Below, in pieces: positions 25,510-50,600 of a DNA stretch of 64,000 bases. How positions within the stretch are numbered: position 1 is the stretch's first letter; the number at the start of each line of letters is the position of its first letter. Below the pieces are notes generated by a model. The model did no database searches and was not told the DNA's origin. It worked only from the letters and a program-made list of their open reading frames with translations. The stretch comes from an uncultured Methanosarcinales archaeon (GTDB lineage: Archaea; Nanobdellota; Nanobdellia; Woesearchaeales; CAYMBN01). The position numbers were made by a program, and so were the translations under genes. Location of the stretch: positions 12,962-76,961 of the forward strand of contig CAYMBN010000001.1 of the NCBI GenBank assembly GCA_964388715.1, written 5' to 3'.

Positions 25510-25571
25510 GTTAATAACCTCCTAAAGAACCTCTTTTACACACTAGAATCGTGTGTTATTTTTAAATATTG

Positions 25572-26105: not shown

Positions 26106-26171
26106 ATATAGAGGAGAATGAGTGTGTTTTTTTAAATGTTTCCTAATTATGTATTTGAAAAAATAAAAAAA

Positions 26172-26720: not shown

Positions 26721-26759
26721 TTTATTAAGTGATTATTTAATTTATTTATAAATTTTTAT

Positions 26760-27740
26760 TTACTTGAGTCTGTAAGTGATAGTTTCAACTCCATTGACTG
26801 TTTTTGTTTCTTTGTTAAAGAGATCTCTATAATCACCATGGCTTTGTCCTGATTTTGGATCAGGTCCTTTGCCAGATGCTTTTGCAAGACCACCAACTGC
26901 ATTTATGAAAGCATCATACTCTTCCTGTACTTTTCCAGGTATTTCTTCAGTAGGAGTACTTTGTGGTACTATGACTATAGGAGGGAATACACTTGGTGAA
27001 GCATTTTTTAACTCTTCACTTGCGTTTTCTTCCCAGACTCCATAAACATCTTCTTCTTCGTTATAGAAATCAACATTGGTTTCAGATAGATTTTCGTCAT
27101 TTCCAAAGTCATATGGGGCAACTTTTTTTTGATATACACCATCTATTATATTAGTTAAACTAATATCAACATTAACTCCATCTATTATAACATAAGTTTT
27201 TACACCATCAACAAATGCTTTTGTTTTCTTTAATGATTCAGCATTTTCTGGAGTGATTGGTATTCTAACATATCTTTGAGTGTTTGCTGGGATGTGTGTT
27301 CCATCATAATTCCATCCCATGTTACCAGTTGTGACAGGGAAACAAATACTGTCAGCTGTAACAACAACATTTTTAGGAGTATAAGGTTGGTCTGTAGAAG
27401 GATCACCACCTAAAATATAATCAATTGCTTTTCGAGTGTTGCTAACAGGAGGAAAGAATACTTTATATTTGTTTAATTCAGTTGAATCAATTTCTACAGA
27501 ATCTGGAAAATTTTGTTCAATTGGTAATGAATCTGCTTGTCTTGATTCTGCATCTGATTTGTAAGTTTCATTGAAAACCGTTCCTTGAACTTGTTGAGTT
27601 GTTCCGGTGCCACTACCTCCTCCGCCACCGCCTCCACCACAGCCCATGGCTAAAGGCATGAAAATTAAAAGTCCTCCTACAATAATTACTCTAACAGCTA
27701 CTCCAATAGATGATTTTCTTGTTATATTTTCTAGACTCAT
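26760..27740 (-). CDS. secreted lipoprotein with a poly-Gly linker; last gene of the giant-protein locus
   Basis: N-terminal TM/signal with lipobox LAMGC followed by GGGGGGGGSGTGT. 326 aa. It lies 63 nt downstream of the giant gene. Confidence 0.55.
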   Translation of the reverse strand: MSLENITRKSSIGVAVRVIIVGGLLIFMPLAMGCGGGGGGGGSGTGTTQQVQGTVFNETYKSDAESRQADSLPIEQNFPDSVEIDSTELNKYKVFFPPVSNTRKAIDYILGGDPSTDQPYTPKNVVVTADSICFPVTTGNMGWNYDGTHIPANTQRYVRIPITPENAESLKKTKAFVDGVKTYVIIDGVNVDISLTNIIDGVYQKKVAPYDFGNDENLSETNVDFYNEEEDVYGVWEENASEELKNASPSVFPPIVIVPQSTPTEEIPGKVQEEYDAFINAVGGLAKASGKGPDPKSGQSHGDYRDLFNKETKTVNGVETITYRLK

Positions 27741-27803
27741 TATTTACCCCTCATTGTTTGTTTTCTTATTTCTATATTTAAATCTTTTGTTTTTTCACCA
27801 CTT

Positions 27804-30800
27804 TTAAACAGTTACACTTCCAGTTTGTTGATTATTGTCTTCATTTATTTCTTGGATTAAGTTATCATAATCAGCTGTCACAGTAACTGGGTAAGTTCCA
27901 CTTTCAGTAAATTTAACTAAAGTGTAAACAATTGTATCTTGACCAACTTCAACTGTTAATGGTTCTTTGTTAACTGGGTTATTACCCTCAGGGCCTGTGT
28001 CAATTATCCAGTTAACGTTTTCAGCTTTTTTATTTCCTTTATTTGAGATTATGAATTTAACAAACATATTAGTTCCTATTTTTCTTGCAGGTTCAAAGTT
28101 GCTAACTTCTAGATCTGGTAAAGGATTGACTGTGATTTTAATCCTTTCTGTATCACTAAATTGGTTGTCACTTACTGTGATTCTGAATTTGTGTGTACCA
28201 AAATCACCTGAATCTGTCTGCCAGGTGAATACATTGTCATTTTGTTCAAATCTTGAATCATCTATTGAATATTCAAGTTGATCTTTGTCAGGGTCTGATC
28301 CTTGAACAGTGATAATGATTTCATCTGTTTCAGTATATTCAATTTCATAATCAATTGAATCAATCTTTGGTCTGTGCAGGTTTTGATAATCACATGGATA
28401 AGTGTTGTTTTCTGGTGGATTATTATCATCTTCTAGGTCTGTTAATTCAAAACAATTGTTTATGTCATTATACCAACCATTGATTAAGTTATTTTCCATG
28501 CATCCTGTTTTTTCTTCAACCCATTCAGGAGCACAATAGTCACAGGAAAGTGCTTTGTAATCAGTAAATATTATATCATCAACTTCATCGCAGTTGTGTT
28601 CATCATATTGTGTTAAGGTTCTTATTTGTAATTGAGTATCATTGTTTAAACATTCTGTGTGATCTGACCATTCGCTCCAAGAAGTGTTTGAGAGTAATGG
28701 AGTACATGAATCACATGTTCTTGATTGTGTTTCATTTGCATGTGGGTTTTCTTCAGCACAATTGTAAATGTCATAATAATATTTTGTTCTTGTTTTTAAA
28801 TCATCTATGCACTCACTCCATTCTGTATAATCAAATTCCCAGTTAGGTGTACAATAATCACAAGGGATTGTTTGATAATCAGTGAATGTTAGATTGTCAA
28901 TTTCATTACAATTGTACTCATCATACTGTGTTAATGATTTTACTTGTTCTTTGGTGTTATCACTTTGACATTCAGTATGGTTGGACCATTCACTCCATGA
29001 TGTGTTTGTGAGTAATGGTGTACATGAATCACATTCTTGTGTTTGAGTTTCATTTTCATAAGGATTTTCTTCATCACAGATTTTTGCATCAAAGTAAAAT
29101 TTGGTTCTAGTTTCTAAATCATTTACACACTCACCCCAATCAGTATAATCTGGAAGCCAATCTGGAGTGCAAAAGTTACATGATATTGTTTGGTAATCAG
29201 TGAATGTAGTATTATCAATTTCATTGCATGTTTTTTCATCGTATTGAATTAGTGTTCTAATTTGTTGTTGAGTATCATCTGGTTGGCATTCTGTGTGATT
29301 AGACCATTCTGTCCAGGAAGTATTGGTTAGTAAAGGTGTACAATAGTCACATGTTTGGTTGATTACAGAAGTTGAATTGTACTTAATCTGTATCTCATAT
29401 AAATATAGGTTTCTTCCTGTTACAAAAGACCTTCCATAAATATCAATAGCTAAATCTGAATTATAGGAAATGCATTCTTGTGGTATCTTAATGTCAGTGA
29501 GACTATTAACACTTGAGGTAAACTCTTTAAATGTTGTAAAGGAATTAGTATCATAACTGAAACAATTGAATTTTAATTCTACATTACCCCATGAGCCTAT
29601 TACTTTATGTTGAAGTATAACACCATCTTCAAATTGTGGTAAATAAGAATAATTTACATAAATATGTCCTGATCTTGGCCAACCAGTTGATCCGTCTAAG
29701 TTTGAGTAAGTTGATAAATCACTATCAAATGCTCTTTCATAGTGGGACCATTGTCCAACTTCAATTATACTTTTTTCATTATTAGATTCAACTAACTCTG
29801 TAAATTCTTCACCACATCCCTTAGTGTCATAATAATTTTTAAATTGAATATCAGTTGGTTCACATTCTGTCCAGGTTTCATTCAAAACCCAGTGAGGTGT
29901 GCAGTAATCGCATGCTTGTTTTTGTGTAATATTATTATGTGGGTTAGGTTCTTCGCAATTATTTGAATCATAATAATATCTTATTCTTGATTTAGTATCG
30001 TCTGGTTGACAGTCTGTCCATTCTGTGTAATTAACTTCCCAATTGGGTATGCAAAAGTCACAAGTTACTGTTTGATAATCTTCAAATGTTGTATTTTGGA
30101 TTTCATTACATGTTTTCTCGTCATATTGGGTTAAGGTTCTGACTTGTTGTTGAGTATCATTTGGTTGACATTCTGTGTTGTTGGACCATTCGCTCCATGT
30201 GGTATTGGTTAGTTGTGGTGTGCAATAATCACAAGTTTGATTTATTTGGGTGAAAATTGGTATTTCAGTATGCCACCATATTGCTTCTTCATAAAAGACC
30301 ATTGCAGATGGATTTAAACACATCCATCTATTACCTCCATAAGTACACCCAGTGTTATAATCATTGTCGTACATTTTAGTAGGAGAACTATATCCTGTAC
30401 CTCCGCAAGAAGTTCCTTTAGTTCCTGCGCCCAAATTTTTCCAACCTGTTTTTGTGAGGCATTGGGGTTGGATTCTAAAGGCAGCACATACTCCAACTCT
30501 TAAAATTAAATGATCTTCATCATGATTGTAGCAATCTGAATTTGTATTAATGGAAATATTTTCAAATATTACATTGTCACTTCTATTTTGATATTTTAAC
30601 TGCCATTTTGCATCATAACCCTTCTTTTTTGTATAATTTACATAAAGGAAACCATTGAGCGGGTGGGCTTTGTCAGCTTGTTCTTGGAATAAAAGTACTT
30701 GTTCCATTGGTTCTTCTTCACAATTGTTAGTGTCATACCAATTAGTATATTGAATATCACCTAGTTCACATTCTGTCCAGGTTTCGTTCAAAATCCAATT

Positions 30801-33800
30801 AGGAGTACAGTAATCGCAAGATATTGTTTGGTAATCAGTGAATGTAACATTGTTAACTTCATCACAGGTGTTTTTGTCATATTGCGTTAATGCTCTGACT
30901 TGCTCTTGAGTATCATCTGGTTGGCATTCTGTATTGTTGGACCATTCGCTCCATGAAGTGTTGGTTAGTTGTGGTGTACAGAAGTCACAAGTTACTGTTT
31001 GGTAATCAGTGAAAGTAACATTGTCTACTTCTTTACAAGTATTCTCGTCATACTGAGTTCTTGTTCTACTTTGCATTTGATTATCATTGACTGAACATTC
31101 TGTATCATTTATCCATTCACTCCAGGATGTATTTGTTAGTAATGGTGTGCAGAAATCACATTTGTAAGTATTGTTTTCTGGAAGTTGATCTGATTCTAGA
31201 TTGGTTGTTTCATAACAATTGTTATTGTCTGTGTAAAATTCAATTATTTCATCTGAAACTAAGCAAGATGTGTTATGTGCTACAAAGTCTGGAATACAAT
31301 GGTCACAACTTATTGTAAGGTTATCCATGAATCCTTCAAGGTCTGATTCAAGTTGTGTTTGTGCATGACAATTGTTTTCATCTAATAAATATAATGTGTA
31401 ATTATCTCGGATACTACATTTTGTTTGATGTTCAATCCAGTTTGGTGAACAATAATCGCATTCATAAGTATTGTTTTCTGGTAATGAATCACTTACAAGT
31501 TGAGTTTGTGAATAACAATTGTTATTATCTGTATAGTATTCAATGATTTCATCTGAAGGTGAACATGATGTGTTATGAGCTACAATATCTGGTGTACAAC
31601 AATCATAAAAGATGATTTCAGTTTCATTTGCATGAGGATTTTCTTCTGCACAGTTGTTTGTATCATAATAATATTTTATTCTTGTTTTTAAGTCAGCTTG
31701 GCAGTCGCTCCATTCTGTGTAATTAACTTGCCAATCTGCTACACAAACATCATTAACAGTAACAATCATATATTCATAGGTTTTGGCTTTGTTTTCATCT
31801 TCTGCAATAAAAGTAATATTGTATTTTCCAGCATCATCATAGCCAGGAGTAAAATATAAAGCATAACTATTTTCACCTATTTTGTTTTGAGTAATCCAAT
31901 TAGGAAGATTTTCATAGGAAAGATTAACTTTATCTCCATCTTTATCTGAAACTTGGAATGATATAAGTGTCCCTCCTTGACTTTCATTTAATTCTATATT
32001 GGAAATGGCGGTTATCTCAGGAGGCCTGTTTATATTGTTTACAGTTATAGTGGCAACTTTCTCATCGCTTCCACCTTTACCATCTTCTGCAATAAAGGTG
32101 ATTGGGTAAACTCCTGCTTGGTCAAAATTAGGGGTCCAACTAAATTCACAATAAGTGCCTTGGGTTACTGGGTCATAATGTAAAATACTACAATCAAGTT
32201 CAGCACCTTGTGGTAAGGTTTCAGATGAGTTTAGTTTAACTCTGCTTCCTTCTGGGTCTAATGCTAATATATGGAATGAAACTTTTTTGCCTTCGTCAAC
32301 TTGAGTGTCATCAATATCGTCTATAAAAGGCGCATAGTTAAGCACTTTTAATATAAGGTTGTCATATGTTGGTCCTGGTTGTGAATGTAACCAACCACCA
32401 AGTAATATTTCAGATGTTTCGAATTGAGTATCATTTGTATCTATATCTAAAACAATTGTGTCATCATAATATGCTTTGTAATTACCGTCTCTAAATACAA
32501 GTTTATAATAATGCCAATCTTTATCTCCGTTTAAGTCTGTTTTATATCTGTTATTGTTAACTACTAATAATAAATCATTGTGACCGTTCCATGCTTTACA
32601 ATAATCAGCACCATAACTTAGTGTTTCATTTCCAGATTGGTTTTTGAATCTTACTGTTGCACCTCTACAATCTAATTTGTTTAGGTTTGCATAAAAGCCA
32701 ACTTCAAAGTAATTTGTATTAAGGTTCATTGGTTTGCTTAATCTAGGACTACAGAAACCACAGGTTGGAGTTAAATGATTATCTATAACATCCCAAGTGC
32801 CAACTTTTTTTGTCCAATCATCAATAGAGTCGTCATTAAAATTATCACAGAGTTCATATTCTCCTTCACAATTTTCTTCAGGTATACTTTCTATTACAAC
32901 TATTTTTATTGGACTTGAGGCACTGTATGTACCATCACTTACTGTAACTTCAATATCATATTCACCTGCATCATCGTAATTTGTTTGCCAGATAAATGTT
33001 GAACTGTGGGATTGGAATCTATCGTCGTTAATTGAATAATTTAGATCATCTTCATCTGGATCAGATGCTTCTACTGTGATTATTATTTCATCACCTTCAT
33101 TATATTCTTCTTGATAATTAATTGAATTAATGGTTGGTGCATGTAAGGATTCATAATCGCATTCATAGGTGTTGTTTTCTGGGAGTTGATCTGATTCTAA
33201 ATTAGTTGTTTCATGACAATTATTATTGTCAGTATAATATCCAATAATTTCGTTTGATGTTAAACAAGACGTATTATGTTGAATTGGGTCAGGTATGCAA
33301 TAGTCGCACTGTTCCATTTCTGTAACATTGTCATGAGGATTTGGTTCTTCACAAGTGTTTAAGTCATAATGGAATTGTATTCTTGATTTAGTATCATCTG
33401 ATTGACAATCTGTCCATTCTGTGTGATCTATCTGCCAGTCTGGAGTACAGAAGTCACAGAAGATTGTTTGATAATCTGTGAAGGTAGTATTGTCCACTTC
33501 GTTGCAGGTATTTTCATCGTATTGGGTTAGTGATCTTACTTGTTCTTGAGTGTCATTTGGTTGACATTCTGTATGATTAGACCATTCAGTCCAAGAAGTG
33601 TTTGTTAGTAAAGGTGTACAATAGTCACAGGAGATGGTTCTGTAATCAGTAAATGTTGCATTGTCAACCTCATTGCAGGTGTTTTCATCGTATTGAGTTA
33701 ATGTTCTTGTTTGCTCTTGTGTATCATCAGCTAAACATTCTGTACCATTTATCCATTCACTCCATGAAGTGTTTATTAGAGACGGTGTACAATAATCGCA

Positions 33801-36800
33801 CCAAGCAGTTGTGTCTTCTGGTTTATTACAATCTGAAAGTAAGCTTGTTTGTTCACAACATAAGTTAATATATTCATAAGTTACATCATAGTAATCATCT
33901 GGATGGCAAGTTGAATTTTCGTTTCTCCAAGTTGAGTTACAATAATTACATTCAATTGTTTGATTGTTTGTTTGGTTTTCTAAGTCTGATGCTAGATTTG
34001 TTTGTGCATGACAAGTGTTTTCATCTAAATAATATTCTATATAATTATCCAGTGTTGAACAGTCTGTTTCGTGTTTGATCCAGTTAGGTGTACAATAATC
34101 ACATTGTTCTATTTCTGTAACATTGTCATGAGGATTTGGTTCTTCACAAGTGTTTAAGTCATAATGATATTGTATTCTTGATTTAGTGTCATCTGATTGA
34201 CAATCTGTCCATTCTGTGTGATCTATCCGCCAGTCTGGAGTGCAGAAGTCACAGAAGATTGTTTGGTGATCTGTGAATGTTGTATTGTCTACTTCATTGC
34301 ATGTATTTTCGTCGTATTGTGTTAGTGTTCTTGCTTGTTGTTGAGTGTCATTTGCTAAGCAATCTGTGTTGTTTATCCATTCTGACCATGATGTGTTTGT
34401 TAATTGTGGTGTACAATAATCGCAGGACTGGTTGATTATTGGTGATGATATTTGTTTTTCCCACCATACTCCTGATTCATATAATTTAGCAGAACTATCA
34501 AGACCTCTTGCTAGAGCAAGGAATCTTTCAAATAAGTTTTGCCATCCACCTGAATTATAATTAAAACATTGAGCTTCAAATTCCACATATTCTTCATCTA
34601 TTATTATCAAAGGATCTGTATAGTCTACAAAGAATCTTAATTGTAAAATGCTACTATTTAAACAACCAGATGGGATAGATGCATTGGTAAAATGCTCTTG
34701 ATCCATTACATCTGAATCAAAGTGTATCTTATATTGTACTTTAGCATCTTCTGTATTAAAAGGAATTGAATAATTAAAGAAGTATTCATAAGGTTCTTCC
34801 TGTACCATATTATCATAAGTTGACCAATCATTATCACATGCTTGATCACAATTATCTGAATATCCTATTTCTTGTTCTTGATAGTCCCATAATAAAGATG
34901 AAATGAATTCTTCTTCACACATGTTCAAATCATATACATTTCTGTATTGAATGTCAATTGGATCACATTCTGTCCATGTTTGGTTTAATCTCCAATCCGG
35001 AGTACAAAAGTCGCAAGATATTATTTGGTAATCAGTAATGGTAGTATTGTCTACTTCATCACAGTTGTTTTCATCATATTGTGTTAAAGTTCTGCTTTGT
35101 TCTTGGGTGTCATCAGATAAACAATCTGTATCATTTATCCATTCTGTCCATGAGGTGTTTGTTAGTTGTGGTGTACAGAAGTCACATTGTTCCACTTCTG
35201 TAACATTGTCATAGGGATTAGGTTCTTCACAAGTGTTTGAATCGTAATGGAATTGTATTCTTGATTTTGTATCTCCTGGTTGACAATCTGTCCATTGTGT
35301 GTAATTAATTGTCCAATTTGGTGCACAGGGATTAGGTATATGTTTTATTGATAAGTTAAATATTTCTAATTCTGTTGCTTCTTGAGATTCAATTGTTAAT
35401 GGAATTAAACAATATTTATTTTCGTCAGCTTCACAACTTTCTAATAAACTATTTAACTCATTGTTAAATTCAAGAACTTCTTGGTTGTCAAATATTGAAA
35501 TATCTTTTATTTTCTTATTTTCAAGATAAACTGAAAAATCGTAATATATTGGGCAACCTTCATCTATTTGATTATCACAATCATCATTAATACTATTACA
35601 AATTTCAGTGGCAGCTGGATTTACATTAGTATTAGCGTCATTACAATCAAGATTGTTTGAAACATAACCAGCAGGAGCATTACAAGCTTGTGTTGTTGTT
35701 GAGGAATCACCATATGTGTCTTCATCAGCATCCCTATAGAATGTTGATTGTACATTTTCATCTTCTTCACCATCACAATCATTATCTAAACCATCACAAA
35801 CTTCTTCTTCTGGACCTACTAAACCTTCACAAGTGCCCCATTGTCCATCAGTACATGTTTTTGTTCCGGTTTGACACTCTCCTACGTCAATACCACAGAC
35901 TTCAGTCTCACCATTAATACATTCACAACCACCATCTACTGATCCATCACAATTATCATCAATCCCATTACAAATTTCAGTTGCACCAGGATTTATATTT
36001 GCGTTGTTGTCGTTACAATCTTGATTATTTGAAACATAACCACTTGGTGCACTACAAGCTTGTTTTGTTGTTGAGGAATCTCCGTAGGAATCAGCGTCAG
36101 CATCTCTATAAAATGTTGATTGTACACCTTCATCAGTGCTTCCATCGCAATCATCATCTTTGTTATTACATACTTCTCCTGCATTAGGATTAATATTTCT
36201 GTCAGTATCATCACAGTCATCAGCTTTGCAGATATCAAAGTAATCTCCGTCATACAAATCTTCATCTTGATCACATCTATCTAAACTAGAATCAATTCTA
36301 TAACCACAAGCATCATCTCCAACAGGGATGTAAGTTTTAAGATAATAATATAAAACACCTTCCCGTGCTTCAAATTCTATTTTCTCTTGTTCTGTTCCTG
36401 AGTTATGTGATTCTCCGATAGGCTCACTCGCTGAACATGAATCATAAAGTTCAATATCATAATTTGTATCACATCCTTCCATATTATTTCCAATGAATAA
36501 ACCCATACCATTTTCATTTGCGAAAATTTTATGCCAAGCCATACCTACACTTACAGGCCAACTAGCTCCAAAAGTTTTTTCAGAAGCACTTGAACAAGTA
36601 TCTCCTTGAGTAACAAAACTTTCTGTTACGTAATCTGGATCTTTCCTTAATGCAAAACTACTATTTACAGTTAAAGAATATTTTGGCATTTTGAAATAAA
36701 CAGTATTGTTTCCTGCTTCATTATAAGTTAAAACTTTTGATGTTGTTCCATCTGTAAAGGTTGATAATTCTATATTACAGTCTAGTGAACAGGTTGTGTA

Positions 36801-39800
36801 ATTTTCGTCTGGTTCGTCACAAATATCATTACCACAGAATGCGAGATTATTGACGAGAATATTTATTATTTGTGTATCTTCAAATTCACCATCATTTACA
36901 ATTAACTTGAATTGATATTCCCTGGCATCTTCATAATTGGTTAGCCAAGTGAATATGTTATTATTTTGTTCAAACCTTGAATCATTAATAGAGTAGTTTA
37001 ATTTATCATTATCTGAGTCAGATGCATATACTGTGATTGTAATTTCATCGGTTTCATTATATTCTGTTTGGTAATCAATTGAGTTAATAATTGGTGCATG
37101 TAGTGATTCATAATCACAGATTATTGTTTGATAATCTGTGAATGTGGTATTATCAACTTCATTACAGGTATTTTCATCGTATTGAGTTAATGTTCTAATT
37201 TGTTGTTGAGTATCATTAGTTAAGCATTCTGTGTGGTTTGACCATTCGCTCCAAGAAGTGTTGGTTAGAGATGGAGTGCAATAATCACATACTTCTGTTG
37301 TGTTTTGTGGTATATTGCAGTCTGTTGGTAATTGTGTTTCTGTACAACATTGATTTGTGTAATAATAATCTACTCTTTGTGCGTTATTTGTTTTACATTG
37401 TCCTGTTATATTTGTCCATTCTGGAACACAATAGTCACATTCAGTGCTTTCTGTTTCATTATCATGAGGATTTTCATAATAACAATTGTTTGCATCATAA
37501 TAGTATTTTGTTCTGTATTTGGTATTATTTAACAAGCATTCATTCCAATTAGTGTAAGTAGATGTCCAATCAGGATCACATGGTTCATGTACATTAACTT
37601 TAAATTTTTGCCAATCTTCAAACAAGCCATTGCTAACATTTAGATTAAAGTCATATTCTCCAACTTCACTTTCATCTGTTTGCCATGTGAAGACATTATT
37701 ATTTTGGTAGAATTTTCCAAAGTCAATTGTACCTACGTGTACACCATGTAGAGTAAAGAAACTACGATGACGGTTAGGCTTAACAATCATTCCTACTGCT
37801 GGATAATAAGGAGGTACTAAATTACCTAAATCAAAAGTTTCTTTTGCAAGATAATCATTTTCTTTAAAGAAAATTGCTATGTTTTTATCTCTATTTATAC
37901 CTACACTACATGTTTTTCCCATTGTACTAAATTCACATTTACCTAATTGTAAATAATCACCATTACTGTCATACACAAAAACATAGAATTCACTAAATTC
38001 TCTACCAACAATATTACCAACCTCAGCTTTCCAGTAATCATATGGGTTTTTGCTGATCAACATGATTCTTCCATCTGTGTTATTTGTTGCATTAGCCCAA
38101 AAGTAAATAAATCCATTATGGTGATAGAAAGTGTTACCTGTTCCAGTGATTTCTGTTCTCCATAGCTGATCGTCTATAACAAAAGGATAATTAAAAGTAT
38201 CATATAACTCTTCTTCAACATCAATTGAATCATTTATTGAATAGGTTAAAGGTCTATCAAATGGATCTTGTGCATTTGCTTCTACTCTCACTATTTCTCC
38301 TGCGTGTGTGTTGATATCATTAATATGTTCAAGTACAGGAGCTTCACTTGTTCCGTTTACTGAAACATGAACTACCATGTTGTTAACTTTTTCTCCGTCG
38401 CTAACTTTAACTTCAAAATCATATTCTCCAATGTCTGAGGAATTTGTTTGCCATGTAAAGGTATTATTATCTTGTTTAAATCTAGTGTATTCTTTGTTAG
38501 CAAAATATATCTCTTTGATCATTACAACAGATGTTACATAAACCCCATTAGGTTCCTTAGAATTACCAGTCATAATTGCAACCATTGCTGGATAATAATC
38601 AGGACCACTTAATTGGCTTATATCAACAATTACAGGATCTTCACCTTGTTTAATAAAGGTTGCAGTATGATCTTTTCTATTTACTTCAACAGAACAGTTA
38701 TTGGCAAAAGGATCACCTTGACATCTTCCAATTTCTAAACCATTGCCATTTTTATCATATAAGTATAGGAAAAAACTATCATTTATGAAACGAAATTCTT
38801 GGAAAGATCTCATTTGAACTTTGAAATAGTCTGAAGGAATTTTGCTTGTGATTGTTCTTGTTTCTCCTTTTTCAGCACCTTGGAAGCTCAAATATCCACT
38901 ATCAGGGATAATTTTTGCATAAGTGCCTGTTAACTCAATTTCCCATTTATTGCTATCAATTGAATCAAATTTATCATGTAGATATTCTTTTATACTGATT
39001 GTGTCATTGATTGAATATGTAAGATTGTCACCATCTGCATCAGCTGAGTCAACTGTGATGTTTACTATTTCTCCTTCATTTACTTCAGTGTCTCCTAGTA
39101 TTACCATTGTTGGAACATTGTTTATGTTTATTATTCCAATTGTAATCTTTCTTGTTACAAGGTTTTGACCATCATCAACTCCAACAAGCACATCAAAGAT
39201 TTTGTCTGCTAATTCCCAAGGATCATTAACACAGTCTAAGCTTTTTCTTTCAATATCATATTCACAATCTCCGATAGTACATCTTGGATTATAGTATTTG
39301 GTTGTTCCTTGACAATGTTCTTCACATTTATTACCACAAGCACCACAATTATTTAGGTCATGTTGAGAGTTGATTTCACAACCATCAACTAAATTATCAT
39401 TACAATCACGGAAACCAAGTGCACATGCATCTATTGAACAAGTGCCAAGAGAACACATTGCATTAGAGTTTGTGAAACCACATACAGTGCCACAAGTTCC
39501 ACAGTTATTTACGTCATTGTGTAGATCTGCTTCACATGCGTCAAATATATTAGTTTCCCAGTTACAATTTTGGTGGTTTGTTGGACATGATTCACATTGT
39601 CCTTGGTTACAGAATTGATTAATTGAATCTGAGCAAGTACTGCCACAGGAACCACAATTATTAGTATCATATTCAATGTTTACTTCACAACCATTGTTCC
39701 AATTACCATCACAGTTTGCAAATCCTGGTTCACATGAACATTCTTCTGAGTAGGAATCACATTTTGAATTTGAACCACATTCTATATTATTACAAGGATC

Positions 39801-42800
39801 TTCTCTGCATTCCCATGTTGTCCAGTCTCCTCTTGCATCACAAATATTTCCTTCACCACAGTCTTCATTACGAATGCATCTTACTGAATACTTTGTTCTC
39901 ATATCTGTTGAGCCATATCCTTGTTGTAAACAAGATGTACAATCATCTACTCCATAATTTTTATCATAGGCAAAAAATAAATAGTTTGTGAATGATGTTG
40001 GTGGTTCAAATAATGTGATTTCTCCATTACTTATTTCTTCTGCATCATATTTTACACAATCGTCTTCTCTACATTTCATTCCATCGCCAGAACCTTCAAC
40101 AAGACAATTTAGTTTTTGGTTGCAATTATCCCAACAATCTTTAACAAGGAAAAGGTTATCTCCTCTATCCATTCTTACAGTTGTTGTTAATGGACCGATT
40201 ATACATACAGAAGGTTCATTGTTGACAGTGCAAATTCTTGCAGGTAGATTAAATGTTGAACCTTGCATTTTTGTTCTTGCTTCTGCAGTGCATTCATCAT
40301 GTTCAAAAGTAGCTTCTGAACACCAATCATAACCTGAGTCTGGTGTACAATCCGAAGTAGTTGGTTCATTTGACATTGTGCTAAAGTCTGTTAAACATGT
40401 GCTTGGTAAAGTATTCCCCATTGCACCATAATCTAAACTAAGTGATCCAAAATTAGTTGTTTCAAAAAGTTCTGATAATGTTGCTTTCCATGTAAAAGTA
40501 TTTTCATTTTTTTCAAATCGTGAATCATTGATATAATATGAAAGAGTATCATTTTCAGGGTCTGTTGCATTGACTGTTATTGTGACTAGTTCTCCTTCAT
40601 TTACAAGATGTTGTTGTTGTACTTGAACAACTGGTTCTTGGTTTGTATTACACTCTTTTTGTTCTTCTGGTTTACCTTCATCTGTTAAACATTCGTTTAA
40701 GTCTGTACAGGTTCTTGTTTGTGAACTGTTTGTACAGTCTGACCAGTTTCCACAGGTCCAGTCAGGGTCACAAGCTGGTGGATCTGGCATTGTTTGTGGA
40801 AAGATTGTTAAATCGTGTAATTCAGTATCATTATCGTGTTCGTAGTCTGCAATGACTTTTATTGAATAACTATCTGCACTAATATCTAGTGGCCAGGTTA
40901 TATTGAATTGATGTTCTCCTGGTATTGTTTCTTGTTCTGAATCAGAAGAAATTGCCCATAATAATTTGCCTTCATAATATCTTTTTGGAGTGTTTCTTCC
41001 ATCTGTTACCATAGTAAAGCCACCTTCTGCTTTAATCCATTCATCATTACTCATATATTCTGTTGGACATTCAACAAAGTTTTCAAACATTCCAAATGTC
41101 ATCATGCAACCTTGATCATTCCATGCTAATAATTTTGTTCTTAGTTGTAAAGTTGATTCTGATGTGTTTACCTCAGGCAATGAGCATGAGAATGTTAATT
41201 GGTCTGATGTTTTTATTGTCCAGTTGATTTCAGTTGAATCTTGAGGCATTGTATAATTTTCATATATGTAATAATATGCAGTGCATCCTGGGCCAGGATA
41301 GGAAGCAGTGTAAGCAGAAGTGTTCCAATCATTATCTGATGCTTTATCACAATCCACAATCATATTGTTTGATGTAGGAGTACAGCTGTAGCTCTGTGCT
41401 GAATCTTCTTCAAACCATTCTGAATCATAATTAGTTGTTGCAGCTGGGACCTGTACTTGACTGGTTGAGTAATTGCCAATTAATTCTTGGTTATCAAGTA
41501 GTTGTAGCTTGATAGATGTGTTTAATGGTTGATCATAGTAATTTGAAAATGTTACTGAGATATCTAAAGGTGTTTGTTCTGTTATATTATTAGTGAAATT
41601 AACTTGTTTGATGATTGCTATTATTTGTTTTAATACAGTTAGGGTTATGATTTTAGAATCATTAAGTTCACTGTCACTTGCGCTGACTGTTATGTTGTAT
41701 TCACCAGCATCACCGATTTGTGTGATCCATTCAAACCAGTTATCACCAATCTTGTTGAAGTTTGAGTTTGATACGTTGTAAGTTAAGTTATCTCCGTCGA
41801 TATCTTCAGCATAAAGTAGTAAAGAAGCTACATCTTCTTCAGTGATTGTGATGTTTTGTACTGATTCTAATTCTGGTTTAAAGTTTCCTTTGATGATGTA
41901 TACCTTGATTTTTCTTTCAACAGTTGCTATGCCATCTGAGGCAGTGATTGTGATATTATGTTCTCCAATATCATCTTCTGATGCAACCCAAGGTGAGTCT
42001 TGTGCACCATCTATGTTAATATCAACTTGATCGTTATCAAGGTCAGTAGCACTAATGTTAAGGTCAATTGTATCGCCTACTCTTGCATAGATATTTTCAG
42101 CTGTAATAAATGGTTTATGATTTGTTACAATGATGTCAGAAAGTATTTTTCTTTGATTTAGATATTCAACATAAACTACTAATTCATAGTTCTGGGTTTG
42201 TTTTAGTAGATTGTCTACGACAAACTCAATTGTGTTTTCTCCTGGATTAAGAGTTGTTTCCTGTTTGTAAAATTCTCCGTTTTCAACTGTTTCTGCTGTG
42301 ATATTAACAAGGAGGTTTTGGTCTAAATGGTTTGATAAGTGAAGTTGGGTGGTTACTTGATTATTATTGTAATCTCCAACTAATATTTGTGCTTCTAGAA
42401 CTTTAACTTCCATGCTGAATGTTGCTTCAGTTAAGGTTACATTAGGATTATTATCTTCTTTTTTGCTAACATTGTATTCTATTTTGTAGTTATAATTTCC
42501 TTCTTTCTGAGGAGTTGTAATTGTTATTTCATAATTATCTAATTCTTCTTTAATATCTTTCTGATATACTATTTCTTGGTTTCTTGTTAAAGTTAATGTT
42601 CCGTTAACTGTTTCTTCACTCACATATTCAAAATCAAAATAAAGTGGAAGTTCTTTGTTTGGTGGAACTATTTTATCAATTGTAATATTATCAAAGTAAA
42701 ATGGTGAGGAAGGCATGTATTCAATTGAATAACTTGTAGTGTTAAACAATGTGAAATTACCTTGGTCACAATCATCAATTCTTAGAGGATAAAGATAAAC

Positions 42801-44087
42801 AACAACTTCATCATAATTATCTCTTTCATATATTTCTTTTATAACTGTAGAATTTTCAAATGAATCATAACAGTTTCTGTCTGTAAAATTTCCATCAGCC
42901 ATTGAAGGATAATCATCAAGGTTAATTGGAGTTGAATCTGAAAGAGAATATTCAATGTTTTTAACAATGCTTCCTTTTGGTAATTTGTGTTTTCTTATGG
43001 TGTATATGTTGATAATGTTTGGATTATCATAGTCATAAGAAAAGTCTGTTGAATTAATTAATCTAAAGGTTTTATTGCTAGTGTTTGAGTTTCTTACATT
43101 TGCAATGTTATAATCAAAGTTGAGTGTGTTTTCGAATTTTAGGTTTTCGTCGGATTGAATACTAAATCCTTGATAATTATAGTCTGCTGGAGAAACATAA
43201 TATTCTTTACATGGATTAAACCACTCATCCAAGTCCCACCAACCATGCCCTTTTTTAATGTATTCACTGTAAGCGTCAGGAACATTGACTCTGGTTAATG
43301 GATTTCCGTATAATGAGTAGGATTTTAAGACTAAGCCTGGCATGTTCTGGTCGTCTGGGTCTGTTGTTGTGTAATATTTTGATCGTGATCTTCTATAAAT
43401 ATCTCCAATTCTTTCTTGTTGGTCTAGATTACATAAAAGTGCTGTCATAAATTCAGATGATCTTACATCTTTTGGAGCGACAATTGTTGAATATCTTGTT
43501 AATTCACTAACATAACTTGGTTCATGTGGTAGTGCGAGTCCGCCCATTTCAATGTTCATTAAAAATAATGGGTTTGTTTCTGCGAATTTGTCTTTCCATT
43601 CTTTGACATTTTCTGGATAAATTTTGTCTGATTTAGTAATTTTTTTAGCATATATTCCAAAATCATCACTATCCATGTAAGATTCTAAGACAAATAATTC
43701 GTTTGGTTGGAATTTATTGATTTCATTGGTTATGGAATCATAACCACCTGTCCATTTTTTTGGTTTGTCCCAGAATTTTAGGTAAGACCATCTTGATCCT
43801 TCTGGAATATCGCCTTTGATGTTGTAATTATCTTCATCAAATCCTGCAACAATCATCTTGTTGCTAGTGAAATCTTCTAAGAAAGGCAATCTACTTGCTA
43901 AGTGTGTTGCGTGATGGATGTCAATTTGTTTTGTATCCAATTGATTGATTAAATCGTATGGTGAATCACCAACTAATCTTGAGATTGATGAATCTTCTTT
44001 AACAGTACCAGAAGTTCTTACTGCAGAGACTGTACTTATAATTAGTAAGATGATGATGCACATTCCTGTTATTATTTTTTTATTCAT
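27804..44087 (-). CDS. giant secreted Cys-rich modular surface protein (5427 aa), adhesin-like
   Basis: An uninterrupted 16.3-kb ORF with an N-terminal signal peptide ([22 protein letters not shown]). It carries cadherin/Ig-like modules (e.g. [20 protein letters not shown]), three LamG/ConA-like jelly-roll modules, a Cys-rich NNCGxCGxxC region, three MopE-like CDDxDxxINPxAxExCNxxDDDCDG repeats, a tandem array of more than 25 disulfide-type modules (WSEWS...[10 protein letters not shown], CTPDW.....TKSRI.[15 protein letters not shown]), and a C-terminal CARDB domain. It has very many NxS/T sequons. Confidence 0.85.
   Translation of the reverse strand: [5427 protein letters not shown]
27807..28130 (-). 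other. CARDB-like C-terminal domain of the 5427-aa protein
   Basis: [34 protein letters not shown].....[21 protein letters not shown] matches the CARDB pattern. Confidence 0.6.
28550..37300 (-). repeat. intragenic tandem array of related 50-65-aa Cys-rich modules, with near-identical stretches at the nucleotide level
   Basis: The reverse complement of TSWSEWS (ccattc[ga]ctccatga-type) recurs at roughly 28.67, 28.99, 29.30, 30.20, 30.94, 31.11, 33.59, 33.76, 34.38, 35.14 and 37.25 kb. At least 11 copies of ...[22 protein letters not shown].C and at least 8 copies of CTPDW....TKSRI.[15 protein letters not shown] were counted. Confidence 0.8.
35550..36320 (-). repeat. three MopE-like putative metal-binding repeats (CDDxDxxINPxAxExCNxxDDDCDGxxDEG)
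   Basis: [60 protein letters not shown] and [30 protein letters not shown]. Boundaries are approximate. Confidence 0.6.
39280..39830 (-). repeat. EGF-like Cys-rich region with three NNCGxCGxxC units
   Basis: [20 protein letters not shown] and [10 protein letters not shown] within a roughly 180-aa Cys-dense stretch. Boundaries are approximate. Confidence 0.5.
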
Positions 44088-44638
44088 ATTATCCAGTTTT
44101 TCCTCTTTTCCTTAACTTCTTGTAAGCTAAGTATTTCTGATTCAGGAACATTTTTTAGATCCATTAATTTATCATAAAGAGCTTTGATCTCTGGATCTGT
44201 TGATCTTTTATCAAGGTCTTTGTGTTTAAGTTTCAAGAGTTCGTAAGTTATGATGAATATTCTAAAGAATTGTTCTTTGATTTTCTTAATAAAATCTTGT
44301 TTGGAAATGTTGTAATCTAGTTTTCCTTCTTTGTTAGGGATCATTAGCTCTTTGTCTAATATTAATTTGTCTAAGAAGATTTTACCTTTAAGATCATATA
44401 AGAAATTGACTACTGCTTCTTCAATAGGAATATTTTCGTATTTTTTATAATTCTCTTTAATTAATTCAAATATTGTCTTTATGACCCAGGACCATTGCGC
44501 AAAGAAATTCCTATGATTAAAAAATTCATAACAAATTTCATGTTTGCAAAAATTTCTTAGGTATTTGCTTTCTTTTACTATTGTTATTGCTGGATGATGT
44601 TCTTTCCTTTCCATTTTTATATTAAAACTTTCATTCAT
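44084..44638 (-). CDS. hypothetical cytoplasmic protein (184 aa) between the two giant genes
   Basis: Lys-rich ORF with no signal peptide. It starts 10 nt after the 2792-aa gene stop, and its own stop overlaps the 5427-aa gene start by 4 nt (ATGA). Confidence 0.5.
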   Translation of the reverse strand: MNESFNIKMERKEHHPAITIVKESKYLRNFCKHEICYEFFNHRNFFAQWSWVIKTIFELIKENYKKYENIPIEEAVVNFLYDLKGKIFLDKLILDKELMIPNKEGKLDYNISKQDFIKKIKEQFFRIFIITYELLKLKHKDLDKRSTDPEIKALYDKLMDLKNVPESEILSLQEVKEKRKNWII

Positions 44639-44648: not shown

Positions 44649-47600
44649 TCATACAAATATTGATAATAATTCGTCTGTATATCTTATTATTCTGTCAACT
44701 ACACTTGATTGTGCTACGTCATCAGCAATATCTAATAATCCACTTGCCCGATGGTATTCATCTGCTAAATTGCTGATAGCTGCTCCTTTAACACCTTTTC
44801 TTTTTATTATTCCCATGAATTTTTTATATACTCCAGGATTATGCCCTTTTGCCTGTGCTAATAAATTAGCTGTTCTATCTGGTAATACGGCAGGGTTGTC
44901 AATCAATGTTTCAAAATGAACTTTAGGATATGGAAGATTGTCAACATCAGATAAAACATGACCTGCAATGTGTTTTTTTGCAACGCTCTCTGTTAAAAAT
45001 TCTTCAAATTCTAATGGTAACTGTGATCTAACTTCTACAGGCAACTTTTGATTAATAAAATTGTGAGCAAATTCATGATTAATTACATTTTCTAGAACTT
45101 CTTTTGGATTAGCATTTTTTGAAACATAAATAATTTGTTCTTCAGCGTCAAGTCTGGCAGGAATTCCTTCTGGTAGATTATCAACAAATTCAATCTTCTT
45201 GATCTTTTTAGCTGCGTCATCTAGTGGGAGAGAGTTGTCTGCTTGTCCAATTGTTTTGATTAATTTCTTTTGCTGGACAGCATCATAAGTATCTGGAACT
45301 TGTTTTAGGAAATCATCAATACTACCATAAGCTTTTTTAATTTGAACGATTCCATCATCAAGATGCTTTAATTCATCTAAACTATCGCTTACCTTTACAG
45401 TAGCTTCTAAAGCATCGTCTGCATATTTGAGTGTATCATCGCTGAACTTTGCTAATTCTTCAATATCAGCTTTTTTCCAAGTCTCTGTTGTTTTATCCAT
45501 AATCTTTAATAACTTACTAGATGAATCTCCTTTCTTACTAGCTATCTTTGCTATGCTTTCTAGGACGTCATCACCTGCACTAGCGTGTTTCTTGACAACA
45601 CTTCCAATTGCATCTAATAGTTCGTCATTGTTTGTTAAGGCTGCTCTTTTGATGTTGGATTTCATAAAGACTTTTGTGAATGGTTTTATGAAATCGTCGT
45701 CAGCTATTTTTCCTGCCGAGTCAATGTTCTGTGCAATGACTTTAATGAATTGTGGATATTTTGCTTTTGGAACTTTAGTAAGAACACTTGCAGCATCACC
45801 TGATTTTACAGTGAATGATGTGGCTGCTCTTCTGTATAATGCGATTTCATCAGCACTTCCTGCCATTGTATCAACTGTTTTCATGAACTTGGCAACCCTG
45901 ATCTTACCTACTGCTTTACCTACACCATAAGAAGCAATTGGTGCTAATGTTAAACCACATTCAACAACCTCCATTGTGCCATTAGGAAGTCTGCCTCTTC
46001 TTACATAACATGTATCGATTGCATCTATTCCTGAAACTACCAAGTCTGTTATAAGAACTGCTTTTACAACTGCAGCACCACCGAGGTAGCCTGCACTTGC
46101 ACCAAAACTGATTGGGATTAAAGCTATTGATACTGCAGTAATAGTGTCGTGGAAAAGCATGTAACCTCTTCCATGGAGACTTTCATAAGTTCCATTTGGT
46201 AGGATTTCATCTGCAAAGCCATTGATTGTTTTTGGATTGTTTGTATTGAAAATGATTGCAGCACTGTCACCGTTCCAAACACTTGGTTCAATAGAGATAA
46301 CATCTTCAAACTCGCCTGTTGTGTACATTGGGTAACAGTTTAGAGCAGGGTTTGTTTCTTTTGTTCCAATAATAATTGGTACGTCTAGTGCATCGAATAA
46401 CCACCAATCTCCAAAGAGATTGAAATCATTACAATTAAGTTCACTACCTTGGATTTCACTGAAATATTCTTTTTTGTCAACTAATTTTTCTGCTACTAAT
46501 TTATTTTTGAAATTTTCAATTGCACTTCGCATTTCAGAAGTTACTGTGTTAGGAAGAATTATTTTTACTTCATTACCTCTTGTTGCTTCGTCATGTCTGA
46601 ATAATTCGTCTATGTTTGAGAAATCATATTCCATGTTTCTTTGTACCATGCTTTGGTCAGTGTACATGTTTTTGATGACAATATCGTCTGGCAATAATTT
46701 ACCAGGATCTGGGAAAGTCATGTCACTTAGTTCAGGACTAACTTGATCATAGAGTTGTTTCATAGGGCCTAATCCACTTATATAATAGAGATATTTTGCA
46801 TTAGACTTGATTGTGTTGTACCAAGGTCTTAACCAAGCAGGAAGTGAACCTGCTCTTATTGAATAAATTTCTCTACTGTGTGGAATAACATAATCATCTC
46901 CAACTAAAACTACATTACCTGCAAAACTTAATTGGTCTTGAATAAACTTGGTTACTTCTTGTGCATAAGAATTATCATTCATCTTTGGGAATAATCTGTC
47001 TTCAGAATATTCACTAAAAGGTATGTCAAAAGGATGTGTGTTATTATATTCATCTAAATGTTGAAATTGTAGATCTAAATCATGGACAACACCATAGTTT
47101 GCTGCTGCTTCTTCATAAACCTTGGTTAATAATAATTTGACTGCTTTTTCATCATTATAACGTCTTAATAGTTGTTTTTTGTTTGTGATATAAGCAATAA
47201 CTGGATCTTGTCCAATTGTATAGATTCTTTGTGAATCTTTGCCAAAAGTAAAAAGGTATGTTTTACTTGGTAATGAATTTACATAGAAATAACATTTATT
47301 ATCACCTTGATTATAATTTTGGTTTAAGCATGCATCTCCTTCAATTAATTCAAAGTTTGTTTCATCATATTCAAGTTGTGTGTCAGGGTCAACATAACCA
47401 TTGATTTTTACATTAACTCCCATAATAGTATGTTGTTGTTTGTTAAGTGTTATTCCTGGAGGTGCATCGTCTATTACAAGATCATAATTTCCAATATTAA
47501 CACAAGCTTCTTGATCAGCCATACATATTTGTTTTCTTGTGCAACCTGTGACATACATCCAATCTTTGTATTTTTCTTGTTGTTCACATCTGTATAATGC

Positions 47601-50600
47601 ATTGTCTTTGCATTTGAATTCGTCAATTGTGTTACATTGATCTTCATATTCTATTGGAATACAATCGTTAAAAATTTGTCCAAATCTACATTCTGTATCT
47701 GGTTCATGGTCAGTACAATCTTCATCACTATGGCATTGACAGTTTTCAGATGAACCATCTGGTAAACCTGTGCAAGGTCCATTGAATTCACATTTACCAT
47801 TACCTAAATTACAGGTTTCATTGTCAAAACATTTGTAAGCATCTTCTAAACATGAACATTCTGGGAAGGTTCCAAAAGGATGTACACATTCTCGTTCACC
47901 AACAATGTATGTTGCATAATTAAAATGTTCATAATTTCCTCCACTAGGATGGAGATAAGTGCCTGCAATGATTCTAAATTCATCATCCCAAGCACTTGCT
48001 TTTGGAGTATTATCATCACAATCATTCACTGAACTTCTGTTTGGAGCAATTACTTCAAATTCAACATCTTCTGTTTGGCCTGGTTCAAGTTCTTCAATTA
48101 TTTTGTAATCATAAAATTTGTTTCCAGGACAGATTTCGATAATGTTATCAATAACTGTTTGAGTTGAAAAAGGTTCTAAAGGATAAATAATATCTCTCCA
48201 ACTTTCTGGAACAACAGCACCTTCAATAAATATGTTTCCTGTAACTGTTCCTTGATTTTTTACTTGTGCTGTGAAAGTAACTACTTGATTTTCTTCTGCT
48301 TCATCTGGATTAACATTTTTTATTGTTTCTATGATTATGTCAGAATAACAATCATCTTCACAATTATATTCTGTTTCACCATCTTCGCAAATACCATCTC
48401 CGCATAATGGCACACATTCATGTGTTGTTGTATCACAACCACCTGGACAGTCTCTAAACTTCCATAAACCATCTTCTTCTGTACAATATAAACCTCCTCT
48501 TTGGTCACATGCATTTAGATGACCCCACAAGTTTGAACAAGGTGCCCAACCAAGATTATCTTCACAGAAATATTGAGGATAAGCTGTGTCTTCGCTATCA
48601 TCTTCATCATCACCTGAACAACAGAATGTATCAACTTCATTACATGTTTTCCAAAAGTAACTTGTACATTGATTATCATTACAAATTGGAGTGACTTCTA
48701 TGCTTTGTTCTCCTGTTGATGAATAATAATCTTCACCACATGCAGAGTATGCACCTGCTATTACAACAAATGAATCTCCCCAAGCAGAGTTTGGTGGTGG
48801 GTCTTGATCACATGCGTCAACTGATATTTTTGATGGTGCTTTTAAATTAAATGCAGAGTATCTTTGTTCACCTGGATCACGTGTTACTTCTTTAGTTGCA
48901 AAATAAGTGTTGTTTTCACAGCAACCTGTGATTCGATGTGAGCTAGATGTTTGACCAGTGAAATCTTGAGTATAAAAGTCTGAAGCATACATGCCTACTT
49001 CAACTTTTCCTGTTTGAATTACTGTTCCATCATTTCTTATTGAAACATTAATTGTAATATTTTCATCTTCCTCAACAGAGGATTGTAATTGGAAAAAGCC
49101 TACTATTACTAAACAATCTTTTGGACAATCTTCTCCTGGGTGACAGGTTCCATCACCGCATGAAGGTGTGATACATTGACCATCAGAACAACCATGAGTG
49201 CAATCTTCTGTTAAATAAGAACAACTACCACTTAAGCAAGATCCACTATATTTTCTTGTGTCGCCATCACATGTATCATCACAAGTTACTCCTGTACATG
49301 GGTCAGGGTTACATTGTTCACCAGAACAACCATGTTCACATTCTCTAAACATCCATAAGCCATCTTCTTGTGTACAATATAAGTCATCTCTTTGTTCACA
49401 TCCTTCTAGATGTCCCCATAGGTTTGAACAAGCTGACCAGTCAAAGTTATCTTCACAATAATATTGTGGATAAGCTGTGTCAGAATTTCCATCACTCTCA
49501 TCACCTGAACAACAAAAGGTATCTACTTCATTACATGTTCTCCAATGGTAGCTTGTACATTGGTCATCATCACAAATAGGTGTAATATCTATACTTTGCT
49601 CTTCTGTTGTTGAGTCATAACCACTGCCACACTCTGAATATGAGCCTGCAATTATTACAAATGAATCTCCCCAAGCAGAGTTTGGTGGTGGGTCTTGATC
49701 ACATGCGTCAACTGAGAGTTTAGATGGGGTTGTTAAATAAAAAGTAGTAGTTTGTCTCTCACCTGCTCCGCGAGTTACTTGTCTTGTATCAAAATATTTG
49801 TTTTCTTCGCAACAACCTGTAATGCCTTCGGAACTTCCGTGTGTTGTAAAATCTTGTGTATAAAAATCACTAGAATAAATGCCTACTTCTACCTTACTTG
49901 TTTGAGAAACTGTTCCAATGTTTTCTATTATAACTTTAACTGTAACATTTTTATCTTCTTCAAATGAAGATGGTAATTCGTAAAAGCCAGCTATAACTAA
50001 ACAATCTTTTGGGCAGTTTTCTCCTTGGTGACATGTTCCATCACCGCATGTTGCTGTGATACATGATCCACTGGAACAACCGTGGGTACATGATTCTGTG
50101 TTTGAATAATAACAAGTGCCTCCTGAACAATATCCATTATATTTTCTTGTATTACCATCACATGTATCACCACAATTTTTATTTGCACATGGATCAACAT
50201 CACATTGGTAAGTGCTTGGGTTGCATCGTTCATCAGAGTCGCAACTTCTATAGCTTTGCCAAGAGTCCCATGAAGTACTTCCACTGCAAGAAGAACTTGA
50301 TCCAGAACAATATCTTCTTTTGTATCTTCTACCTACATCATCTCCTAAATCAGTGCCCCATGGACAACCATACTCTGTATCATATTGATAATTACATGTC
50401 CAAGATGATGGTCTATAATATCCATAAGAATCACAACAACTTCCAGAAGTACAGTCTCTTAAATCAACTTCAAATTCATATTCAACAACAGTATTTTCTG
50501 GAATGTTTTTTGATATTTCATGGTTATAATCTTCATTAGTTACTAAATTAAGACCTTTTATTTGTATTTCGTGAGTTCCAGCTGAAAGTTCATAATCTGG

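Follow-up and report, generated by a model that had tools for sequence, protein, structure and literature searches.

Introduction

In the complement control protein (CCP, or Sushi) arrays of factor H and CR1, 20-30 modules of about 60 residues, each with four cysteines bonded 1-3/2-4 and with conserved Trp and Pro, follow one another with very short linkers and form bead-like or rod-like molecules. The thrombospondin type-1 repeats (TSRs), modules with six cysteines, carry motifs for C-mannosylation and O-fucosylation in eukaryotes. DPANN archaea depend on contact with other cells. In cultivated nanohaloarchaea giant DPANN surface proteins of 8880-9409 aa, the 'SPEARE' proteins, are membrane-anchored and combine a VirB4/TraG-like ATPase with Ig-like (immunoglobulin-like) and fibronectin-like repeats; host-cell binding via the Ig-like domains has been proposed and an association with a protease discussed (PMC10266531). 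Giant proteins of this kind are prime candidates for cell contact, and most of their sequence is unannotated. Here we describe a tandem array of small cysteine-framed modules in a 5427-aa protein encoded by a 64,000-nt stretch of archaeal DNA (contig CAYMBN010000001.1, positions 12,962 to 76,961; hereafter the window, to whose numbering all coordinates refer), and compare it with these systems. The giant gene occupies 27804..44087 on the minus strand, as defined by its open reading frame (ORF), translation and Pfam domains; a first-pass annotation, made from the letters of the window, had drawn attention to its repeats.

Results

Module array of the giant protein

The translation of the giant gene was parsed at C-[DNS]-[YFSH]-C junctions and the pieces were aligned. 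The protein contains 30 modules of 47-57 aa with a common four-cysteine frame, joined by C-D-[YF]-C junctions and arranged in three blocks. A hidden Markov model of the module found 30 copies, all of them in the giant ORF, and matched nothing in the remaining ORFs of the window, which agrees with the more than 25 related modules expected from the first-pass annotation. The span given there (28550-37300) falls within the array, whose true extent is slightly wider, 28392-37580. The blocks are separated by Ig/PKD-type and other domains. Block 1 (37116..37580, minus strand, aa 2170-2324) has the order B-D-A, block 2 (33159..35327, minus strand, aa 2921-3643) the order B-A-E-A-B-C'-D-A-A-B-C, and block 3 (28392..31745, minus strand, aa 4115-5232) the order B-C-C'-C-A-A-E-A-B-E-A-B-A-B-A-C. 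The final (A-B)x3 of block 3 is a 318-nt higher-order repeat with 62-63% nucleotide identity.

Of the module types, A, B and C had been recognized before and are real, but C', D and E have to be added, so that there are at least six subtypes (11 A, eight B, four C, two C', two D with six cysteines, and three E). All 30 modules match the frame C-x-P-x-W...C...Y-x-D-x-N-x-C...C, in tandem, with a two-residue D-Y, D-F or N-Y junction. In an alignment of 53 modules from the giant protein and its relatives four Cys columns are invariant (C1, C19, C39 and C55 in module A numbering; below, C1 to C4 denote the first to the fourth of them), and the consensus reads C-T-P-x-W...W-x-x-C...D-T...R...Y-D-x-N-x-C...N-x-T...C. 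Six cysteines occur only in the D and F/X subtypes, with the extra Cys at positions unlike those of TSRs. When the subtypes were compared with each other by hhalign, the probabilities were 98% for B-E, 97.5% for C-E, 97.6% for C-F, 96% for B-C, 89.5% for A-B and 73% for A-E. On the strength of these links and of the common frame we regard the subtypes as one superfamily. Cysteine makes up 6.8% of the array, as compared to 3.2% elsewhere in the protein.

The WSEWS-type motif reported earlier for module A was confirmed: there is one W[ST]EW[SI] per A module, 11 in total. The WSXWS motif of cytokine receptors lies in a fibronectin type III domain of roughly 100 aa; here the motif sits in a Cys-bounded module of 55 aa, and a cytokine-receptor reading was rejected. 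A divergent six-Cys module (CDPDWTCGNWSDC..QTRTC..NEC), the 31st copy, lies at 40650..40772 (minus strand, aa 1106-1146) and is related to the F/X subtype found in relatives.

Family size and distribution

Neither the whole protein nor single modules gave a match of the modules to any Pfam or NCBIfam model, even at E<=10; at this threshold Pfam returned nothing for six representative modules and for the three modules hosting nested domains (see below). Matches of the type Aca2_YdiL, CoaE and XdhC had no stretch above threshold and resemble artefacts of composition or of repeats, and Atg10 and Dcp1a were chance matches (E about 1) of the module profile against PDB sequences. A word-indexed homologue search detected 12 relatives only; the family came into view with an exhaustive profile search. 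Among 1.84 billion cluster representatives the latter yielded 642 proteins at E<=1e-3, at least one of them spurious (P0123, a Bacteroidetes-type repeat protein matching profile positions 15-38 only), and 233 at E<=1e-10. The giant protein was the top match, with 31 matched stretches against 23 for the protein with the next most, and carries the largest module array found. Across the family the two residues between the junction cysteines were DY in 319 cases, DF in 127 and NY in 59. Literature searches on TSR-like and Cys-rich modules of DPANN archaea yielded no description of this family.

When 185,579 species genomes were scanned with a pattern, A-type modules were located at 15 loci, a figure that under-samples the taxonomic range because one narrow A-only pattern was used. 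Most of these loci belong to metagenome-assembled genomes (MAGs) of Woesearchaeota, Pacearchaeota and Nanoarchaeota; the remaining ones are in an Altarchaeum-labelled MAG, in bins labelled Methanosarcinales and Kuenenia, and in one unclassified archaeal bin. Their arrays comprise up to 18 modules, with the same subtypes interleaved. The window itself (G+C about 32%) encodes an isoleucyl-tRNA synthetase with 60-65% identity to proteins named Candidatus Woesearchaeota or Nanoarchaeota, and a TFIIE-alpha-type regulator; the organism is therefore a DPANN archaeon, Woesearchaeota-like and of the small symbiotic type. Among the genomes found, the superfamily appears to be confined to DPANN archaea.

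Many module-bearing relatives have in common a domain of about 130 aa ('W-N-L-I-S-I-P-L ... G-Y-W-[IV]-K'), located at the C-terminus of P0001, P0004, P0014, P0018 and P0025 and at the N-terminus of P0015. It may serve for anchoring or for binding a partner. It is absent from the giant protein, which ends in CARDB.

Predicted fold and relation to thrombospondin repeats

Because hhalign connects the module subtypes with one another at 73-98%, it has power at module length. We used it to compare the module profiles with an alignment of TSP-1 repeats 1-3 (verified as 100% identical to PDB 7yyk_A) and properdin repeats 1-5 (taken from the 1w0r alignment). The probabilities were 0.1-4%, and about 6-13 columns were aligned, around W-x-x-W...C, with SWSEW..C placed against GWSPW..C. 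By sequence the modules therefore could not be placed in the TSR family. Failure to align to TSR profiles, which the first-pass annotation had named as refuting the resemblance, was also seen with Pfam: none of the 53 modules matched any TSP family at E<=10. TSRs were not found when the module profile was run against PDB sequences. One relative, P0016, gave a sub-threshold match to Pfam TSP1_CFP_C (25.2 bits, cut-off 27).

AlphaFold2, supplied with the 53-sequence module alignment, modelled the A module at 34251..34415 (minus strand, aa 3225-3279) as a three-stranded antiparallel ribbon (strands 5-7, 24-35 and 45-54) with a mean pLDDT (predicted local distance difference test score) of 90.3. 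TSRs ranked first in two independent fold comparisons of this model; in Foldseek the first match was properdin (probability 0.96, TM-score 0.62, E 0.22). The predicted model has the elongated three-stranded antiparallel fold of about 50-60 residues that characterizes TSRs. Six conserved cysteines forming three disulfides were not found, the 53 modules having four invariant Cys columns. Full or almost full conservation is seen in the A modules for W10, W13, Q27, R29 (>=90%) and Q33. The B modules contain one Arg and a pair of Trp seven positions apart, and C, C' and D modules have neither W-x-x-W nor the Arg. The proposed resemblance of module A to TSRs thus holds for the predicted fold, but it does not extend to the sequence or to the number of cysteines. 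In predicted shape the modules appear TSR-like, with marginal statistics.

Cysteine pairing

The predicted topology places C1 together with C3 and, at the opposite end of the ribbon, C2 together with C4, so that the simplest disulfide map would be C1-C3 ('bottom') and C2-C4 ('top'). The junction cysteines are coupled: among 121 adjacent A-A junctions in the family, C4 and the C1 of the next module (C1') are both present in 94 and both absent in 27, and there is no junction with one only. According to the model, where C4 and C1' have been lost together, the orphaned C2 and C3' would face each other across the junction and could pair. Every block of the giant protein opens with a lone C1 and closes with a lone C4. 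Both observations suit the C1-C3/C2-C4 map and speak against a bond between C4 and C1'. A junction disulfide between C4 and C1' (vicinal CxxC) combined with a C2-C3 bond was rejected because the terminal modules retain the lone C1 or C4; moreover, the model separates C2 from C3 by the length of a 12-residue strand.

Divergence of the copies and reproducibility of the assembly

The copies are less similar than the 70-95% identity initially stated. Amino acid identity is 60-85% (mean 73) between A modules, whose nucleotide identity is 67-84%, 46-94% between B modules and 70-81% between C modules. Long near-identical nucleotide runs had also been reported; those present are modest. The best nucleotide repeat, an A-end plus B unit, is 300 nt at 88% (33258-33557 versus 34053-34352, minus strand), and all exact repeats in the array are shorter than 60 nt. 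The segment 33258..33557 represents the youngest duplication of the array (synonymous divergence dS 0.23, non-synonymous divergence dN 0.03 for B3282 versus B3547). For A-module pairs the median proportion of synonymous differences (pS) is 0.66 and the median non-synonymous difference 0.14; dS exceeds 1.5, which is near saturation, in 32 of the 55 pairs, and dN/dS is 0.04-0.2 for the closest pairs. The module copies are old and under purifying selection. The low dN/dS together with the near-saturated synonymous sites supports a structural role under constraint.

Contigs from other samples reproduce the whole array with 100% identity. JGI 3300009374 contig Ga0118720_1000501 is 100% identical to the window over 23220-37740, and ENA SCRA20-1 (SAMN11854493) scaffold_471 over 34084-54638. 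Over 16760-37740 the ENA scaffold differs from the window at 19 positions, every one outside the giant gene, and gene calling gives 5427 aa in both contigs. Since independent contigs match the window, there is no sign here of collapse, mis-assembly or copy-number variation. The suggestions that the repeats undergo recombinational expansion and contraction, and that they are prone to assembly collapse, are thus unsupported at this locus, the former in view of the near-saturated synonymous sites and the low dN/dS. Of the 19 differences 18 cluster within 49 nt (23171-23219), in the 5' part of a GT2 glycosyltransferase gene (22667-23371, minus strand), where two JGI 3300009374 contigs break; this looks like a local hypervariable patch in an otherwise clonal population. 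Contigs from JGI 3300009405 and Logan SRR8062331 both stop exactly at 40937 (aa ~1050), a point towards the N-terminal side of the giant gene that is not in the module array; a repeat or strain variation may be the cause.

One locus of the pattern scan, L017:2-7315 from a MAG labelled Candidatus Altarchaeum sp., contains runs of four and of three identical 54-aa A-type modules. These runs indicate very recent tandem expansion, unlike the old, diverged copies of the window. Expansion therefore happens in the module family.

N-glycosylation sequons

N-x-S/T sequons occur in the array at 3.9 per 100 aa, about twice the 1.8 expected from shuffled sequences (z 8.3, a value inflated by the relatedness of the module copies), and at 0-0.9 per 100 aa in cytoplasmic neighbour proteins. 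Instead of the four to six sequons per module mentioned in the first-pass annotation, we counted one to four, with a mean of 2.4 (A 2-4, B 1-3, C 1-2). In 96 homologous modules, which have 3.75 sequons on average, the A-type sequon positions 7, 15, 44 and 22 are kept in 74, 54, 60 and 38%, respectively. Heavy N-glycosylation of the array is plausible, since the organism is an archaeon, the N-terminus of the protein is signal-peptide-like, and the sequons are both enriched and conserved in position.

Nested domains in E modules

The E subtype is characterized by the motif W-x-L-N-x-T-W-x-x-C...Q-[YF]-K-N-Y-Y-D-x-N-x-C, and its C3-C4 loop usually has 13 residues. A domain of about 150 aa, a putative beta-sandwich, occupies this loop in all three E modules of the giant protein and likewise in P0001 and P0133. 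The host modules are located at 34422..35006 (aa 3028-3222), 30231..30809 (aa 4427-4619) and 29349..29903 (aa 4729-4913), and a free-standing copy of the same beta-sandwich domain is at 40908..41375 (aa 905-1060), all on the minus strand. In the first of the host modules the nested beta-sandwich spans aa ~3061-3215. In P0014 the C3-C4 loop of E modules contains a different insert, an RCC1-repeat propeller of about 280 aa, twice (aa 854-1165 and 1269-1580). The AlphaFold2 model of a module with its nested domain had a pLDDT of 61 overall and of 35-48 in the host part, and gives nothing on the placement of the insert. We tentatively consider the nested beta-sandwich lectin-like or carbohydrate-binding module (CBM)-like.

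A motif of this domain, D-x-D-[WLY]-x-T, is near the N-terminus in two of the window copies and in the free-standing copy; P0001 and the third window copy have it close to the C-terminus (the copies at 30231-30809, 34422-35006 and 29349-29903 were compared). The shift may reflect circular permutation or may be an alignment artefact.

Domain context and neighbouring genes

The giant protein starts with a signal-peptide-like hydrophobic segment (aa 3-29), and a hydrophobicity scan of the protein revealed nothing transmembrane-like besides it. Outside the modules there are He_PIG, Big_9 and PKD (Ig-like) domains, MopE-type Cys motifs (aa ~2650-2860) and a C-terminal CARDB domain. The signal-like N-terminus, the lack of another hydrophobic segment and the company of PKD, He_PIG, Big_9 and CARDB domains point to an extracellular location. 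A second Cys-rich region outside the modules, at aa ~1430-1630 (window ~39200-39800), consists of units of the form 'C-E-x-[ND]-x-x-x-D-x-N-N-C-G-x-C-G-x-x-C' with a weak NCBIfam match to repeats of myxosortase-dependent M36 peptidases. In public data two contigs carry an identical protein (P0013); the longer contig measures 268,758 bp.

The start of the giant gene overlaps, in a 4-nt ATGA, the stop codon of a 184-aa gene (44084..44638, minus strand), which is probably co-transcribed with it; the 184-aa product showed neither a hydrophobic segment nor a Pfam match. Ten nucleotides upstream of this gene lies a subtilase gene (Peptidase_S8, 2792 aa; 44649..53027, minus strand), a probable operon partner of the giant gene. 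The subtilase has a signal-like N-terminus, Cys-rich repeats and one transmembrane-like segment (aa 2319-2337). The tight packing of the three genes in one orientation suggests an operon of a surface protease and an adhesin-like partner. The subtilase gene contains an internal direct repeat of about 850 nt with 78% identity (48435-49284 versus 49326-50175), which encodes the Cys-rich unit '...CGDGTCH.GE.CPKDC...'. At the other end of the window, in 720-4459, genes for tRNA-His (720-793), histidine ammonia-lyase (hutH, 1585-3129) and histidyl-tRNA synthetase (3176-4459) adjoin each other on one strand.

Discussion

We think it rather probable that the array serves this giant, adhesin-like protein as a stalk and display scaffold which is rigid, glycosylated and held by disulfides. 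Each module would be a three-stranded antiparallel ribbon of about 50 residues pinned by two disulfides. With a spacer of just two residues (D-Y/F) between C4 and the following C1, the modules would be butted end to end and form a stiff rod, and N-glycans on the conserved sequons would coat it. Three such rods would alternate with Ig-like/PKD domains, and the three host modules would display the lectin/CBM-like beta-sandwich. A protease-resistant stalk of this kind could hold binding domains tens of nanometres out from what is a very small cell and help it to attach to a host cell or to the surface of a polymer, and the giant protein may act together with the co-oriented giant subtilase. A TSR-like module is about 4-5 nm long; by this measure 30 modules would add on the order of 100 nm of reach, which is comparable to the size of such cells.

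Several points weigh against this interpretation. A C-terminal anchor was not found in the giant protein, which may therefore not stay on the cell. The modules might themselves be ligand-binding units and not passive spacers. If the organism lives under anoxic conditions, the formation of extracellular disulfides would call for an explanation, and among the genes of the window no oxidoreductase was recognized. The poor model of the nested domain (see above) adds to these difficulties.

The second point is taken furthest by supposing that the modules are very divergent true TSR homologues that bind ligands, for example acidic glycans or host surface proteins, through a face of stacked Trp and Arg, the array being a multivalent binder. 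TSRs came first in both fold comparisons, W10, W13, Q27, R29 and Q33 appear to be spaced as expected for a ladder between strands A and B, the sole stretch aligned by hhalign (SWSEW..C with GWSPW..C) occupies the equivalent place, and the P0016 match to TSP1_CFP_C comes close to its cut-off. We nevertheless consider this unlikely: hhalign gave at most 4% for every subtype as against 73-98% between subtypes, no module matched a TSP family in Pfam, the framework has four cysteines and not six, and the C, C' and D modules, which lack W-x-x-W and the Arg, are interleaved in the same rods. The cysteines could alternatively bind metal, with C2 and C4 joining C1' and C3' of the following module in a Cys4 site for Zn or Fe at the C-x-x-C. 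This is the classic spacing of metal ligands, the four cysteines would converge at each junction of the predicted topology, and MopE-type 'putative metal-binding' motifs are found elsewhere in the protein. Such a site is very improbable, however, since the Cys pairs kept in terminal modules can never complete it, the 27 junctions of relatives that keep two of the four cysteines fit one inter-module disulfide and not a metal site, and the D and F subtypes gain Cys in pairs as disulfide-rich domains do.

The array might also be a contingency locus, in which recombination between near-identical copies changes copy number and varies the surface, or else an assembly artefact of repeats. The identical tandem modules of L017 speak for recent expansion in the family, and one A-B unit of the window is 88% identical across 300 nt. 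Against this stand the median synonymous difference of 0.66 between A copies, the shortness of the exact repeats (<60 nt), the 100% identity of the JGI 3300009374 and ENA SCRA20-1 contigs over 27804-37740 and 34084-54638, and the absence of any of the 19 differences from a gene called at 5427 aa in each contig. We regard this explanation as the least credible of those considered, with hardly any chance of being right.

A sizeable unannotated stretch of giant DPANN surface proteins is now defined by its four-Cys frame, the C-D-Y-C junction, a set of at least six subtypes and 642 protein clusters in public data. To this are added a confidently predicted fold, a putative disulfide map, conserved sequons and a recurrent site of domain nesting. 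The family has become searchable, is suited to a Pfam-type model and offers small, well-behaved constructs. A bolder proposal, to which we give a low probability, is that the modules are remote homologues of TSRs, or that archaea arrived independently at the same Trp/Arg-laddered ribbon. If it is true, DPANN archaea hold a large and diversified family of TSR-like adhesion modules, one subtype of which has evolved into a general 'socket' for nesting foreign domains such as the beta-sandwich and the RCC1 propeller, and which is a prokaryotic counterpart, possibly the source, of an adhesion module usually regarded as eukaryotic. Common ancestry would bear on the origin of eukaryotic extracellular adhesion modules; without homology, the TSR-like fold would be a clear example of convergence towards a three-strand ribbon pinned by disulfides.

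Comparison with known systems

The modules resemble TSRs in length (about 55 aa), in the three predicted antiparallel strands, in an irregular first strand carrying W-x-x-W followed by Cys and, for A and B modules, in the row of conserved Arg and Gln on the second strand. Like TSRs they are probably extracellular and glycosylated, and they form tandem arrays. They differ in having four cysteines with a putative 1-3/2-4 map, an extra Cys before strand A and the C-x-x-C junction. The Trp/Arg motif is missing from C, C' and D modules, N-glycosylation sequons replace the C-mannosylation and O-fucosylation motifs, and the host is a DPANN archaeon. The size of the modules, the Cys map, the linkers, the length of the array and the Trp and Pro are reminiscent, on general knowledge, of CCP/Sushi arrays; the modules showed neither the beta-sandwich fold nor a profile match of that family.

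With the SPEARE proteins the giant protein shares its very large size, its probable secretion or surface location in a DPANN archaeon and its tandem Ig-like and other adhesive domains. In contrast to them, no ATPase, transmembrane anchor or coiled coil was detected in it by domain and hydrophobicity scans, and it is built largely of an undescribed Cys module that does not appear in the published domain description (PMC10266531). The repeat adhesins made of PKD, He_PIG, Big and CARDB domains likewise consist of many small beta modules in series, and the same domains stand between and after the module blocks here. Compared with those adhesins, the repeat unit of the array is much smaller, is framed by disulfides according to the predicted map, has no Pfam or NCBIfam entry and, in one subtype, hosts nested domains. 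The protein belongs to a known kind; its module constitutes a new domain family.

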